This document shows, piece after piece, positions 1,751-17,737 of a stretch of 20,000 bases of DNA. The notes under the pieces are model-generated. The model searched no databases. It saw only the letters and a list, made by a program, of their open reading frames with translations, and had not been told where the DNA came from. The translations under genes and the position numbers were made by a program. Source of the stretch: an uncultured virus (IMG/VR IMGVR_UViG_3300042288_002474) (taxonomy: Duplodnaviria; Heunggongvirae; Uroviricota; Caudoviricetes); the IMG/VR virus record IMGVR_UViG_3300042288_002474. One strand, given 5' to 3'. How positions within the stretch are numbered: the first letter of the stretch is position 1; every line of letters starts with the position of its first letter.

Positions 1751-3985
1751 ATGGGATTTGGTAGGAAAGAGAGGGAAAATGCGCCCGTTAGTGGCACAAC
1801 TAAAGATTATATTAGAGGCATTGCCGGACTTTGCGAGGGAGTGATTGAGGGTTTACCCAATGGAAGTAAGGATATTTCCCTAAACGGGACTCCCTTACAA
1901 AACAGTGACGACAGCTTTAATTTCCTGAATTTTTCTTGGGATTTAAGAGTTGGGACTAAAGATCAAACAGCTTTTCCGAATGGCTTAAACGAAACTTCAA
2001 TAGACAACACTATAAATGTTGAAGTAACCAATTCTTTAAGCGCAACCCGCACCGTATTTAATGCAGATGTTACAGCTTTAAGGATTAGGCTGGCTATTCA
2101 ATTAGATAATAAAGGGCAGGAAGATAGCATAACTTTTAGGATTTTAGTTAAGGAAGGTAGCGGTGGTTCTTTTATTGAGAAAGCCGTCCCTACTATTAGT
2201 GGGAGATTTCCTACATTTACTACTTTCCAATACTTCTACCAAGTAGATGAAACTTTAGACGAGTATTCCGTAAGAGTAGAAAAAATCTCTGATGATTCTG
2301 TAACAACAGATTTAGTAAGATCCTTACAATGGTTAACTTTTACTGAAGTTGTTCAGAAACAAATTGCTTATATCGGCACAGCCTTAATTGCCTACAATTT
2401 TAATAGTGAGTTGTTCACATCCGATCCAGAAGTTTCGTTATTTTTAGCTGGCAGTATTTTTTCTATTCCCACTAATTCCACTATTAATACTTTAAGGACA
2501 GATAGAGGATTAACTTTTAGCGGTGGTTGGGATGGAAACTTTTTTACTCCAACTTTGGCGACGACTGACCCAGCTTGGGCGGTTTATGCTTTATTTACTA
2601 GGAGTAGGCAGGACGGCGGTTTAGGTTATTCCACTACTCAAGTTAATAAGTGGGATTTATACCAATGCTCCGTTTATAATAATGTATTAATAAGCAATGG
2701 TTTTGGTGGTACAGAAAGGCGTTACAGTTTTAACGGCTTAATAACTCAGCAGCAAGTAACAATTGAAACAATTAGGGGAATTTGTGCGACTTTTGCAACA
2801 AAACCTTATTGGGACGGAACTCAGTGGCGTTTTTGGCAACAGCGACCTACGACTGTGTTGCCAAGAATTTTGTGTAACGCTGACGTAAGAGACGGGAAAT
2901 TTTCTCCATCACAAGGTGAGTACCAAGCGATAACCACAGCTTGCAAAGTTTGGTACACCGATCCAACTAATGATTATGAACAAAGTCCTGAACCAGTGGA
3001 AGTAGCTGAGGCAATAACTAAATATGGATATCATCAGGAAGAATTTACAGCTTTAGGAATTATTACTCGCGGCGCGGCTATTAGAGCGGGGCGCAGAATT
3101 ATTTACAATTCGCTACCTAAATATAATAAGCAAATTACTTTTGAGTGTAGACCTCATGCAATATTTTTTAAACCTGGAGAGGTGGTACAAATCGCCGATA
3201 GTGCTAGAGGTAGGCAAAGAAAAGCTGGGCTTATTTCATCTGCCACTTCTACGGCTATTACTTTAGATGCTCCAACGTCTGTTAGTGGAAGTGATGCGGT
3301 AATTGTTTTAACTTTAACCGACGAATCTAATAATATCTATACCTTAGAAAGAGATATCTCAAATGCAGCAGGAACGCATACGATAATTAATGTTTCGCAG
3401 TCCCTTTCGGTATTGCCATTGCCACACTCAACGTGGCAAATAGTAGACGGATCGGTAACTTTGCATCGTTACCAAATTTTAGATATTAGTCCATCCGACA
3501 ATCCATTATTTTTTAGCATTACTGCTAAACTTTATGATCCGGATTTAGAAAGTAAAATAGAGTCTGGAATAAGTATTACGGAATGGCCTGCCATTAACAG
3601 ACCTCCTGCCGTTATGACTCCTCCCAATAACCTTGTCGTAAATATTTTAAGTGATGAAGTAGGGATAGAGTCTTATTGGGAACAACCTACAAGAATAGGC
3701 GGAGGGTTAGAAAGTTATACAAAATCTTATATTGCAGAATATAAGATTGGGCTAAACGGAAGTTGGGGAAACAGAATTAGTACCGTAAATTTATATGCTT
3801 CTTGGAATTTTCCCACAATTTTAACTACCACTTATTACGTTAGGGTCGCTGCTATTTCAACGCAAGGTAAAACTTCCCGATGGGTCGTACAATCCAAAGC
3901 TTATGCACAGATAAGTTGGACTGGATTAAGTGAGGATTCCTGGCTTACTGTGGGAGAAGATGAATGGTTCGGAATGGGTGTATAA
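1751..3985 (+). CDS. Tail tip attachment / central fibre protein J (lambda gpJ-like, 744 aa)
   Basis: LCEGVIEGL...ISLNGTPLQNSD, WDGNF...TTDPAW, ERRYSFNG, PGEVVQIAD motifs and a C-terminal FN3-like YYVRVAAIS; K-I-J synteny. Confidence 0.9.
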   Translation: MGFGRKERENAPVSGTTKDYIRGIAGLCEGVIEGLPNGSKDISLNGTPLQNSDDSFNFLNFSWDLRVGTKDQTAFPNGLNETSIDNTINVEVTNSLSATRTVFNADVTALRIRLAIQLDNKGQEDSITFRILVKEGSGGSFIEKAVPTISGRFPTFTTFQYFYQVDETLDEYSVRVEKISDDSVTTDLVRSLQWLTFTEVVQKQIAYIGTALIAYNFNSELFTSDPEVSLFLAGSIFSIPTNSTINTLRTDRGLTFSGGWDGNFFTPTLATTDPAWAVYALFTRSRQDGGLGYSTTQVNKWDLYQCSVYNNVLISNGFGGTERRYSFNGLITQQQVTIETIRGICATFATKPYWDGTQWRFWQQRPTTVLPRILCNADVRDGKFSPSQGEYQAITTACKVWYTDPTNDYEQSPEPVEVAEAITKYGYHQEEFTALGIITRGAAIRAGRRIIYNSLPKYNKQITFECRPHAIFFKPGEVVQIADSARGRQRKAGLISSATSTAITLDAPTSVSGSDAVIVLTLTDESNNIYTLERDISNAAGTHTIINVSQSLSVLPLPHSTWQIVDGSVTLHRYQILDISPSDNPLFFSITAKLYDPDLESKIESGISITEWPAINRPPAVMTPPNNLVVNILSDEVGIESYWEQPTRIGGGLESYTKSYIAEYKIGLNGSWGNRISTVNLYASWNFPTILTTTYYVRVAAISTQGKTSRWVVQSKAYAQISWTGLSEDSWLTVGEDEWFGMGV

Positions 3986-14718: not shown

Positions 14719-14931
14719 ATGTCCCGACCGAGTGAAGATAGAGTTAAGATCCAGTGTCGTCTGCCCAGAGACAAGAAAGCACACTGGGACGAGTTGCTGA
14801 TAAATGGCGGCTTTTTCTTTCGGTATAAAGCCGCCATTTATCCTATGTATGGGGAATTTCTAGAAGCACTGCTAGATGGTGATCCTAGGGCGTTATTGGT
14901 TATCCTGAAAATATTTTCTAAAACCACTTGA
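14719..14931 (+). CDS. Small putative DNA-binding regulator (ribbon-helix-helix-like)
   Basis: GGAG RBS; N-terminal alternating strand RVKIQCRLP followed by helices (...YGEFLEALLDG); upstream TGCTATAGT extended -10. Confidence 0.5.
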   Translation: MSRPSEDRVKIQCRLPRDKKAHWDELLINGGFFFRYKAAIYPMYGEFLEALLDGDPRALLVILKIFSKTT

Positions 14932-14956
14932 CAAATTGGAATAAGTCTACTAGACT
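14928..14956 (+). promoter_or_regulatory. Sigma70-type promoter of the accessory cassette
   Basis: TTGACA-17 nt-TAGACT; palindrome AGTCTA-C-TAGACT (14944-14956) overlaps the -10. Confidence 0.7.
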
Positions 14957-14993: not shown

Positions 14994-15857
14994 ATGAGAT
15001 TACTAAACAAAACGGTTCAAAGCTTTGAGTCTGCTAACAATCTAATTACTCAATTAAATAAAGCGATTAATACAAGTTACATCCCCACTGGGGATGACAT
15101 AAAAGAGGTTGTGCATAACTTCACTAAAATTCAGTTAGCTAGGACATTTAATCCTAGCTGTTTTAGTGCGGCGCATTTAACCCTGACATTTAACGAGAAA
15201 GAAATTCTCACTAGTTACTTGTCTACATCATTAACTAGTGTTGATATTTTCTATCGGTTTAACAACAACATGGAAGTAGATTCAATTGAAATCAATGTTT
15301 CAATACCTGATGATAGATCCCAACCTGGAAGGACTCATTATGAGTCCTTAACACGTGAGTTCTATAGGAACAACTTCATAGCAGTTGATTGGACTGCTAA
15401 ATCAGTTGAATTAGTTGTACCGATTGACCTAGTGTCATTAAATGATCACTGGTCAGTTACGGATAATATTCCGAACTGGGTAGTAGAAGAGATTAGCAAT
15501 TACAATGCTGTATGGAATGGATATGCCGAGTTACTGGAACTTGGTTATGTTCCAGTTAATAATCTAATAGGATTTAAATTAGTATTTCACAATCCCAATA
15601 ATTCTATCCAATACATTGTAGTTATCGAAAAACTACATGAAATAGATAATAACTACTATTTACTTGAAGATGTAAATAGTAAGCTACGAAATGAAGGTGT
15701 TAGTTACTTGAGATTGATCGAAATGATTAAATCTGCTGTTGATAAACAATCACGCAAGGTTGAAGAAGTTATTGACTACGAATACGATGAAAATGTATAT
15801 GATGACGGACACGAAAGAGTTAGTAATAACTTACCCGAAGGCTTTGCTGGCTGTTGA
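14994..15857 (+). CDS. Hypothetical protein (287 aa)
   Basis: Long ORF with AGGA RBS downstream of the promoter; acidic C-terminus; no recognised motif. Confidence 0.75.
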   Translation: MRLLNKTVQSFESANNLITQLNKAINTSYIPTGDDIKEVVHNFTKIQLARTFNPSCFSAAHLTLTFNEKEILTSYLSTSLTSVDIFYRFNNNMEVDSIEINVSIPDDRSQPGRTHYESLTREFYRNNFIAVDWTAKSVELVVPIDLVSLNDHWSVTDNIPNWVVEEISNYNAVWNGYAELLELGYVPVNNLIGFKLVFHNPNNSIQYIVVIEKLHEIDNNYYLLEDVNSKLRNEGVSYLRLIEMIKSAVDKQSRKVEEVIDYEYDENVYDDGHERVSNNLPEGFAGC

Positions 15858-15874
15858 TTTAGACGAAGCATAAA

Positions 15875-15941
15875 GTCGAAACAGGGTTAGCAACCCTGTC
15901 TGCATGAGGTTAGTGACCTATGCACTGATGAGACAAACTAG
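15875..15941 (+). ncRNA. Type II hammerhead ribozyme (predicted cleavage 3' of C15900, GUC site)
   Basis: GTC-GAAA; stem III ACAGGGTT-AGC-AACCCTGT; C; stem I TGCAT(g)AGGT-TAGTG-ACCTATGCA; core CTGATGA; stem II GAC/GTC; loop I TAGT can pair with the 3' tail ACTA (pseudoknot). Confidence 0.9.
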
Positions 15942-16075
15942 GGGGAAGCTTCAAAGAAGTTAGAACCTACCAGTGGCAACACTGCCACCAAGACAATAAA
16001 AATTCCCTACTTTAAGGGCAAGTATTCTGATTGGGCAGAATATGTAGATTCTCTCCCATTTGATAAGTAGTTCCT

Positions 16076-16101
16076 TGACCTAAGCAAGTCATTAAACTGC
16101 T
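16076..16101 (+). ncRNA. Compact H-type pseudoknot motif
   Basis: P1 TGAC/GTCA, loop CTAAGCAA, linker TTAAAC, P2 AGCA/TGCT. Confidence 0.4.
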
Positions 16102-16126
16102 GTTGTAAATAGTTAGCAGGGAAACA

Positions 16127-16222
16127 ATGCAAACAACAATGACAGTGGGTGAATACACTTATCACCTATCCGAATTAGAAAGCCGTAGGGTAAAACCGGG
16201 CTGGCAACCTTTTACCGTTTAA
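16127..16222 (+). CDS. Small ORF (31 aa, MQTTMTVGEYTYHLSELESRRVKPGWQPFTV)
   Basis: AGGGA RBS-like sequence upstream; stop lies 8 nt before the next ATG. Confidence 0.35.
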   Translation: MQTTMTVGEYTYHLSELESRRVKPGWQPFTV

Positions 16223-16230
16223 CCCACCTG

Positions 16231-16602
16231 ATGACTAACGGTATTGGTATTTTATGGGGCGTTATCCAGTCGCCCCTAATAATTTCCCCACTCTACCCCG
16301 TGGGGAGTCCCCACCATACAACACTCCAGTTTGGGGTTGGCCGCCAAGACTGGAAAGAGTGGGAGGGTTTAGAGTTCCAAGCCACAACTTTATATGAAGC
16401 TTGGAACGGCAAAATACAAGCTGTAGCTGTCAAACTTCCTGATCATATTCCCTGCGCTAACAAATATCCTCACATATCTGTTAGTTGGTGTAAAGGCATA
16501 AAGCCCTATGAATCGAACCTGATGCTGTCATCTAAGTTTGACTACAGACTGTTCAAGCAATCTGTAAAGATGAAAATAGAGTTTTTAGAGTGGATAGAAT
16601 AA
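16231..16602 (+). CDS. 2H phosphoesterase superfamily protein
   Basis: Two HxT/S motifs (H29-T-T-L and P-H81-I-S-V), each followed by a hydrophobic residue, in a 123-aa protein. Confidence 0.72.
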   Translation: MTNGIGILWGVIQSPLIISPLYPVGSPHHTTLQFGVGRQDWKEWEGLEFQATTLYEAWNGKIQAVAVKLPDHIPCANKYPHISVSWCKGIKPYESNLMLSSKFDYRLFKQSVKMKIEFLEWIE

Positions 16603-16627: not shown

Positions 16628-17410
16628 ATGAAAAACATTTTTGTTGAAGATTTAGGAAATGGTGTGATATTGGAAATGGCTGCAATCCCCGGTGGCACTT
16701 TTATCATGGGTTCACCACCAGAGGAATTGGGACACAGGGACAATGAAAGTCCCCAGCATCAAGTCACAGTCCAACCCTTCTTTATGGGTAAATACCAAGT
16801 CACTCAAGCACAATGGCGATTTGTAGCTCAGTTAGCCCAAGTGAACCGTGAGTTAGAGCAAGACCCATCTAACTTTAAAGGTGATAATCGCCCTGTGGAA
16901 CAAGTATCTTGGTATGATGCGGTGGAGTTTTGCGATCGCCTCTCAAATCATACTAAAGAACAATATCGCCTCCCCAGTGAAGCTGAATGGGAATATACTT
17001 GTCGAGCCGGAACTACTACCCCGTTTTATTGTGGGGAAACAATTTCTACAGATTTAGCTAATTATGATGGTAACTACACCTATGGTGGTGGTGCAAAAGG
17101 AGTTTATCGAAAAGAAACAACAGAAGTAGGCAGGTTTGGAGTAGCTAATAACTTTGGATTATACGATATGCACGGCAACGTCTGGGAATGGTGTCAAGAC
17201 GATTGGCATAATGACTATGAAGGTGCGCCAATAGATGGAAGCGCATGGCTAAATAATGAAGAGGATAATAACGGTAAGCTGCTGCGCGGTGGTTCGTGGT
17301 ACAACTCTCCTGTGCATTGCCGTTCTGCTTATCGCGGCAGCAACCATCTCGACCACTACCACTACGATATTGGTTTTCGGGTTGTGTGTAGTGGTGCGGC
17401 GAGGACTTGA
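16628..17410 (+). CDS. FGE-sulfatase (SUMF1/CLec-fold) domain protein, cyanobacterial DGR-target type
   Basis: IPGGTFIMGS, ESPQHQV, YQVTQAQW, RPVEQVSWYDA, YRLPSEAEWEY.CRAGT, NNFGLYDMHGNVWEWC, LLRGGSW...R...IGFRVV. Confidence 0.93.
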   Translation: MKNIFVEDLGNGVILEMAAIPGGTFIMGSPPEELGHRDNESPQHQVTVQPFFMGKYQVTQAQWRFVAQLAQVNRELEQDPSNFKGDNRPVEQVSWYDAVEFCDRLSNHTKEQYRLPSEAEWEYTCRAGTTTPFYCGETISTDLANYDGNYTYGGGAKGVYRKETTEVGRFGVANNFGLYDMHGNVWEWCQDDWHNDYEGAPIDGSAWLNNEEDNNGKLLRGGSWYNSPVHCRSAYRGSNHLDHYHYDIGFRVVCSGAART

Positions 17411-17471: not shown

Positions 17472-17594
17472 AAATTTTTGTCAGAATCAGGATATCTACC
17501 GATTAAAGGATGAAACTGATATTCAACTATTAAACCGGAAATTAGCGAAGCTTATGAAGTTGGAATGACAAGGATTTTAAAAAGTATCACCCCA

Positions 17595-17619
17595 GCCCGT
17601 CAGAAATGGCGGGTTTTTT
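17595..17619 (+). terminator. Rho-independent terminator closing the accessory cassette
   Basis: GCCCGTCA-GAAA-TGGCGGGT followed by a T-tract. Confidence 0.88.
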
Positions 17620-17737
17620 ATTGTTTATTTGCCCAGGACACCTAACAAGGTTAAAAAAATGTCCTTGCATACTACCATACCTCTTTTTTTACAATTACAT
17701 TAAGTATATGCTTTTAAAATAATTTTACTAAAACTAC

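Follow-up and report, generated by a model that had tools for sequence, protein, structure and literature searches.

A canonical type II hammerhead motif and its predicted role in an accessory operon of a likely cyanophage

Genes and features of the locus

The stretch of DNA analysed here (20,000 nt, hereafter the window) belongs to an IMG/VR provirus record (G000) that is 66% complete and carries lambda-like tail genes together with DnaE. The best cultured match across the region was Aphanizomenon phage vB_AphaS-CL131 (CL131), from which we infer a filamentous host; the phage likely infects cyanobacteria. Window features described below lie on the plus strand.

A 70-aa ORF (14719..14931) heads the module. 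It has no Pfam, NCBIfam or PHROG match and presumably resembles a small DNA-binding regulator, and similar small ORFs were found at the module head in relatives. A sigma70-like promoter, TTGACA-17-TAGACT with 10 of 12 consensus matches (14928..14956), likely marks the operon start. The promoter scan alone is no evidence, because 9 sites were found against 10.4 expected; a promoter-like site lies similarly upstream in L163, L164 and L167, three of the ten loci tested. An ORF of 287 aa with no assigned function (14994..15857) lies 5' of the ribozyme. Its TGA stop codon (15855-15857) leaves a gap of 17 nt before the ribozyme, as the earlier note on this DNA had reported.

At the far end, a FGE-sulfatase/CLec-type gene with a hypervariable 3' end (16628..17410) was recognized through profile search and comparison with L175, followed by an intrinsic terminator-like hairpin with a U run (17594..17625), which has matching DNA in L002 and L006 and is the likely operon end. 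The FGE gene and its L175 copy differ only in a cluster near the 3' end (17200-17410). Such clustered variation resembles the targets of diversity-generating retroelements; no reverse transcriptase was found in G000 or four relatives.

The type II hammerhead motif

The motif spans 15875-15940, and sequence inspection found every core nucleotide, three stems and a pseudoknot. It opens with the stem II 5' strand GUC (15875..15877), followed by the GAAA core (15878-81) and an 8-bp stem III hairpin (15881-88/15892-99), both in the Rfam match and in the fold of 15878..15899. The GUC triplet (15898..15900) places the predicted cut after C15900 according to the hammerhead consensus. Stem I (15901..15924) folds into 5+4 bp with G15906 bulged and a UAGUG loop. 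The CUGAUGA core (15925-31) and the stem II 3' strand GAC (15932-34) make up 15925..15934, again in agreement with the Rfam match, and two nucleotides (AA) separate GAC from the tail strand ACUA (15937..15940), whose partner is UAGU at 15911-15914 in loop I. The conserved stem II pair is G15932-C15877, and a fifth pseudoknot pair, U-G, is possible between 15910 and 15941.

In hammerhead numbering, C3-U4-G5-A6-N7-G8-A9, G12-A13-A14, A15.1-U16.1 and H17 are all present. Loops close stems I and III, stem II is open and contains the G10.1-C11.1 pair, and UAGU/ACUA supplies a loop I/3'-tail pseudoknot of at least 4 bp. The earlier note had called the element a complete type II hammerhead, and its core, GUC triplet, 8-bp stem III, 9-bp bulged stem I, 3-bp open stem II with the conserved G-C pair and UAGU/ACUA pseudoknot were all recovered where it had placed them.

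The note had also proposed a check against the Rfam Hammerhead_II model (RF02276). This gave an end-to-end match (34.1 bits, E 3.7e-5, model positions 1-66 of 66), but one under the gathering score of 37 bits, which is a curation threshold and not a biological definition; a gathering-level Rfam scan of the window was empty for this reason. The two near-identical relatives described below, from the IMG/VR phage G001 and from CL131, were also under the threshold, one with 36.2 and the other with 36.7 bits. A hammerhead descriptor covering all three permutations matched the 71,236-nt record at the window site alone. When the record was resampled 100 times with a first-order Markov model, two loose type II matches appeared and none equalled the window ribozyme.

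The minimum free energy fold of 76 nt was the hammerhead, with an unexceptional folding energy (z -1.56; 13 of 200 shuffles were equally stable). In wider, nested-only folding, stems I and III had probabilities of 0.85-0.94 and the 3-bp stem II one of 0.02-0.03, from a model that omits the pseudoknot and tertiary contacts. The weak stem II in wider nested folds counts against the reading that the element cuts. A 3-bp stem II is usual among phage type II matches (147 of 172).

The ribozyme is conserved in other phages. The G001 copy showed 96% identity over 83 nt and the CL131 copy 90% over 126 nt, and the flanking genes differ among the window, G001 and CL131 despite the near-identical ribozyme. 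One loop base is changed in G001, with the pseudoknot pairing kept as G-U, and a 38% homologue of the 287-aa ORF lies before the G001 hammerhead. In CL131, GGAGG follows the pseudoknot strand without a gap, and then comes the ATG that starts a small gene. Comparison by descriptor and Rfam revealed three unannotated hammerheads on the minus strand of CL131 (MG209611.1; 97349-97417, 98375-98436 and 105165-105227), one of type II and two of type I.

An alignment of 23 type II sequences had 94.9% of its cells paired, a value reached by none of 500 shuffles, and 13 of 18 pairs showed double changes. It was composed of the window, G001, CL131 and 20 of 22 length-matched matches (L061 and L074 left out), the latter drawn from a pattern scan giving 125 of about 650 stretches; since a stem descriptor served to choose the rows, the covariation count is partly circular. 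In the pseudoknot helix (77% paired), the three window-like rows are shifted by one column. Among the 172 distinct type II hammerheads of phages, 161 had a pseudoknot of at least 4 bp, compared with 90.8 when the tails were swapped, and the descriptor made no pseudoknot requirement.

A chance match to the hammerhead consensus might be suspected from the sub-gathering score and the folding z of only -1.56. Set against the E-value, the absence of an equal match in 100 resampled genomes and the conservation in G001 and CL131, whose flanking genes differ, this reading deserves practically no credence, and we regard it as refuted by the resampling, that conservation and the alignment covariation. 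The element was thus confirmed as a real, canonical type II hammerhead motif for which self-cleavage is predicted.

The motif itself is ordinary, such elements being known in phages since 2011. The available text of Perreault et al. 2011 (PMC3088659) describes type II hammerheads and their pseudoknot and shows them clustered at single prophage genes, in line with the earlier note's statement that such hammerheads lie between phage genes. The window RNA shares with this type the open stem II, hairpin stems I and III, the core, GUC, the 4-bp pseudoknot and the intergenic phage site, and it showed no difference in itself from RF02276, its score being just under the cut-off. The same source demonstrates cleavage for tandem hammerheads of prophages, both in vitro and in E. 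coli, and 14 of 18 consensus hammerheads tested there were active, so some consensus hammerheads are inactive.

Hammerhead arrays and the 2H phosphoesterase gene

A gene starting 331 nt past the predicted cut (16231..16602) encodes a 123-aa 2H phosphoesterase, a predicted 2',3'-cyclic phosphodiesterase, and forms the conserved end of a cassette array. The protein matched Pfam tRNA_lig_CPD (PF08302) with 32 bits (cut-off 23), and H29-x-T31 and H81 are invariant. Its model had a pLDDT of 94.5 and the best Foldseek matches were to CNPase (E 2.5e-3, TM 0.58); at this E-value the fold match alone is weak. The two H-x-T/S motifs and the 2H fold were both present, which places the protein among the 2H phosphoesterases. 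It shares the two-histidine motifs, PF08302 above cut-off and the CNPase-like predicted fold with the fungal tRNA-ligase CPD domain, CNPase and phage Acb1, but it is a stand-alone protein, and no partner ligase was found in five genomes.

The interpretation in the earlier note is supported and can be refined in two ways. One is that the ribozyme belongs, as one unit, to a hammerhead-punctuated operon common to related cyanophages. Among 25 viral and metagenome loci with close relatives of the 2H gene, 21 had one to four same-strand hammerheads upstream of this gene, and none had a hammerhead downstream within 0.3-6.4 kb of sequence per locus, against a background rate of one match in 944 kb. 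As for the four hammerhead-free loci, L176 starts inside the ribozyme, the upstream sequence of L180 is 147 nt long, and the other two, L185 and L187, belong to the distant relatives. When CL131 and two distant named records were added and sequences collapsed at 95% identity, 19 arrangements remained, with a hammerhead in 15 of 15 close-clade and 0 of 4 distant ones. A given slot may hold a type I hammerhead or one from either of two type II families, and the intervening genes are variable. Relatives carry one to four hammerheads each and the window one intact copy and one stub, in keeping with the clustered punctuating hammerheads of phages. Comparison of these sequences shows the window ribozyme to be one unit of a variable accessory operon with hammerheads between its genes.

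Two near-identical type I hammerhead repeats flank a 383-aa gene in L004/L164. The upstream one (G003:C1, about 2593-2653, minus strand) has a damaged stem III and cleavage triplet.

The position of the ribozyme behind a stop codon was also noted earlier. The stop is there, but the telling neighbour is usually the downstream gene, as in CL131: among phage hammerheads, 110 of 131 of type II and 71 of 90 of type I had an ATG at most 50 nt downstream, compared with 54 of 240 random positions. The first qualifying ATG of the window lies 296 nt away from the ribozyme, and L174 has the same sequence. What follows the ribozyme is a start-less open frame of 42 codons (15942..16070), a possible gene remnant with no homologue among the fetched loci except identical copies. 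The gene formerly located directly after the ribozyme appears to have been lost or to have decayed in this genome.

Three deletions were recognized within 340 nt downstream of the ribozyme, and the window copy of the operon is, judged by comparison with its relatives, eroded by deletions. The 31-aa ORF (16127..16222) is an in-frame internal deletion of a 107-aa gene intact in L177. Next to it, a type I hammerhead stub, CCCAC CTGATGA (16223..16234), is fused to the 2H start codon; its junction is a 5-nt microhomology, and relative to L177 and L163 the remaining type I ribozyme and a gene of about 122 aa were deleted. The same eroded arrangement exists in two metagenome contigs, L174 and L175, so an assembly error is unlikely.

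This erosion suggests that the ribozyme could be a leftover, which may still cut and was selected as the leader of a lost gene (e.g. CL131 gp126), with no selected role here. The missing start codon after the ribozyme, the deletions, one of which took a whole type I hammerhead together with its gene, and the G001 copy, which likewise has no clear ATG (the next one is 427 nt away), all point in this direction. Nevertheless, every core and stem base has been kept, whereas in the upstream protein the window and L174/L175 show a difference of about 21%, and a cut would still set the 3' end of the 287-aa gene message. We consider a leftover unlikely.

The finding of a cyclic phosphodiesterase gene next to ribozymes that produce cyclic phosphates raises another possibility, a dedicated cut-and-heal system in which the operon's 2H enzyme would open the 2',3'-cyclic phosphates made by the hammerheads, blocking re-ligation or circle formation or timing decay, with help from a 3'-phosphatase in some phages. 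The 2H gene lies 284-791 nt after the last hammerhead in 15 of 15 close-clade arrangements (L181 representing the L180/L181 pair), its predicted fold is CNPase-like, and a PNK3P-family phosphatase lies 2-3 kb away in two of five genomes, namely those that carry the near-identical type II copy. However, distant 2H relatives have no nearby hammerhead: L185 (59%), L188 of a Nostoc phage-plasmid (46%), L189 of Synechococcus phage B23 (29%) and L187 (34%, with only 550 nt upstream). None of the 125 further phage type II loci compared (out of about 650 stretches; 80 with long flanks) encodes the 2H family, RtcB and Rnl2-type ligases were each found in none of five genomes, and shared descent of one accessory module explains the linkage. 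Such a system is therefore quite unlikely in our judgement, and shared descent is the simpler reading of the 2H link. A further alternative is an anti-defence role, in which the 2H enzyme could degrade cyclic-nucleotide defence signals in an Acb1-like way (PMC12830947, as far as its available text goes).

In the ligase survey, two of the five records were 65-66% complete, and the Rnl1 search was positive in no control genome. A general coupling of hammerheads with 2H genes was rejected, since none of the 4 distant 2H loci has a hammerhead and none of the 125 other type II loci has this 2H family; a scan of genome contigs for further distant 2H loci found none, so the distant sample comprises four loci.

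The B23 2H homologue (L189) also lies at the end of an array made up of single genes, which are separated by promoter-like repeats: at L189 1432-5995 there are repeated intergenic units of about 250 nt with terminator- and promoter-like parts and no hammerhead.

In many relatives the 2H gene is followed by a conserved gene of about 140 aa (L168:6354-6770), where the window has the FGE gene. It may resemble Csx16-type ring nucleases; it had no Pfam, NCBIfam or PHROG match, and structure search gave Rossmann-like matches only, at Z<5. Similarly, the gene before the distant 2H homologue in L185 (1609-2010) starts with an NLxPH motif, presumably reminiscent of Crn4 ring nucleases, and found no support for a ring nuclease in PDB or Pfam. 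A ring-nuclease identity of these neighbouring genes was unsupported by profile or structure searches.

Predicted cleavage and operon punctuation

Hammerhead cleavage is a Mg2+-dependent internal transesterification, leaving a 2',3'-cyclic phosphate on the upstream product and a 5'-OH on the downstream one. RNA ends that are hairpin-capped or carry a cyclic phosphate or 5'-OH should resist host exonucleases. The window ribozyme is predicted to cut itself after C15900, and we think that it probably serves this likely cyanophage as a punctuation mark, splitting the operon into single-gene messages.

The multi-gene transcript would be cut co-transcriptionally between C15900 and U15901. The upstream message would then end with the stem III hairpin and a cyclic phosphate, and the downstream message would carry its 5'-OH on the first paired base of stem I, leaving no overhang, and this hairpin would stand immediately ahead of the ribosome-binding site. 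Each cassette would receive an identical leader regardless of the sequence upstream, and with ends both protected and independent of context, the cassettes would be freely swappable. Because the gene after the ribozyme has decayed here, the cut would mainly finish the message of the 287-aa gene, and also cap the message of the 31-aa ORF, the 2H gene and the FGE gene.

The type I hammerheads of this clade would make similar ends. The first five bases of their downstream products, GUGGG, pair with CCCAC 12-17 nt downstream in 25 of 25 distinct copies, compared with 0.72 in shuffles (maximum 6); the 25 copies are related and not independent. The CCCAC strand sits just before the ribosome-binding site. 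Outside the clade, a 5' hairpin of at least 4 Watson-Crick bp was formed by 38 of 126 phage type I hammerheads against 28.6 after shuffling (maximum 42), and one of at least 5 bp by 8 against 8.9. A general 5'-hairpin rule for phage type I products is thus unsupported, and since such rebuilding is not general, end protection is not a universal rule. Synthetic insulators such as RiboJ place a self-cleaving RNA before the ribosome-binding site and so produce a fixed 5' leader. Unlike RiboJ, hammerheads of the window type are natural and occur in arrays, and their leader function is predicted.

The hammerheads could instead be mainly conserved DNA repeats for cassette recombination, or slow regulated switches, with constitutive mRNA cutting secondary. 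Near-identical repeats flanking cassettes in L004/L164, the window deletion junction inside a hammerhead core and the weak stem II in wider folds would agree with this. Yet a slot may be filled by either type I or type II, which have no long sequence in common, and the compensatory base changes indicate that the RNA structure is under selection. We consider such a role very unlikely, and punctuation of the operon by cutting remains our preferred reading.

Expression data were taken from seven public runs, in each case in the form of assembled contigs. Contigs from two metatranscriptomes of different studies end at 15869 and 15870, one of them continuing into adapter, and none of the RNA contigs of the two studies covers 15871-15917. 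These ends lie 30 nt short of the predicted cut; they fit an RNA end near the ribozyme and can be considered a weak hint. In run X7, one RNA contig lies over window positions 15918-16140 at a depth of 116 and joins a foreign part of 189 nt to the 3' half of the hammerhead. The foreign part corresponds to the 5' portion of a phage gene (357 aa) present in L438/L439; this gene has no Pfam match, and we take it to be integrase-like. The contig may be a chimera or a rearranged variant.

In the text available, Perreault et al. 2011 (PMC3088659) proposed that hammerheads process long messages into gene-length mRNAs, and Weinberg, Weinberg and Hammann 2019 (PMC6765202), likewise consulted in part, regarded this role as suggested but unproven. 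Like the clustered prophage hammerheads of the former (Fig. 3, for example the Agrobacterium ardA triple), the cyanophage arrays have mixed types flanking single variable genes on one strand; they differ in that the array always ends in a 2H gene and that refolding gives the type I products of the clade a 5'-terminal hairpin ahead of the ribosome-binding site. Neither of these two features was found in the accessible part of PMC3088659 or in the hammerhead-phage literature searched, a body that left subscription journals mostly outside. What is added here is the module, with its interchangeable types, hairpin-capped products, terminal 2H gene and cultured host-phage pair, together with an unlisted pseudoknot.

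The role of bacterial and phage hammerheads is still unsettled, as far as the consulted part of the 2019 review (PMC6765202) goes, and this cyanophage family is a tractable test case: CL131 is cultured and has a near-identical ribozyme, types I and II are interchangeable, and the predicted products are hairpin-capped with a 5'-OH. Should the cut ends prove to be substrates of the 2H enzyme, this enzyme would exemplify the protein partners which the same part of the review suggests seeking.

The unlisted element is a 26-nt H-type pseudoknot (16076..16101), which lies 140 nt downstream of the hammerhead and 25 nt before an ATG and was recognized by sequence pattern and covariation. A self-contained mRNA-processing module may be imagined, in which the hammerheads cut, the 2H enzyme opens the cyclic ends and this pseudoknot represents an undescribed processing class (self-cleaving or 5'-exonuclease-blocking); we hold this to be rather improbable. 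The pseudoknot had no Rfam match, and no published description of it was found, though the supplement of Weinberg et al. 2017 (PMC5737381), a source available in part, might list the motif. Identity with STAXI was rejected: RF01728 matched none of four records at E<=10, and the published STAXI row, in the portion of the source at hand, differs.

Further copies were found in G000:C1 near 894 and 531 (minus strand), and both flip the stem. One narrow pattern matches about 1,700 viral stretches. At least five pseudoknot pairs were present in 106 of 119 distinct copies, compared with 14 in controls, and G-C/A-U covariation was significant (Fisher p 5e-13, uncorrected for the relatedness of the copies). 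The pseudoknot stood before ribosome-binding sites in 33 of 115 cases, against 6 of 111 further downstream. It also occurs before a tRNA and in tandem, and it was detected in phages of Staphylococcus, Moraxella, Microcystis and Cylindrospermopsis.
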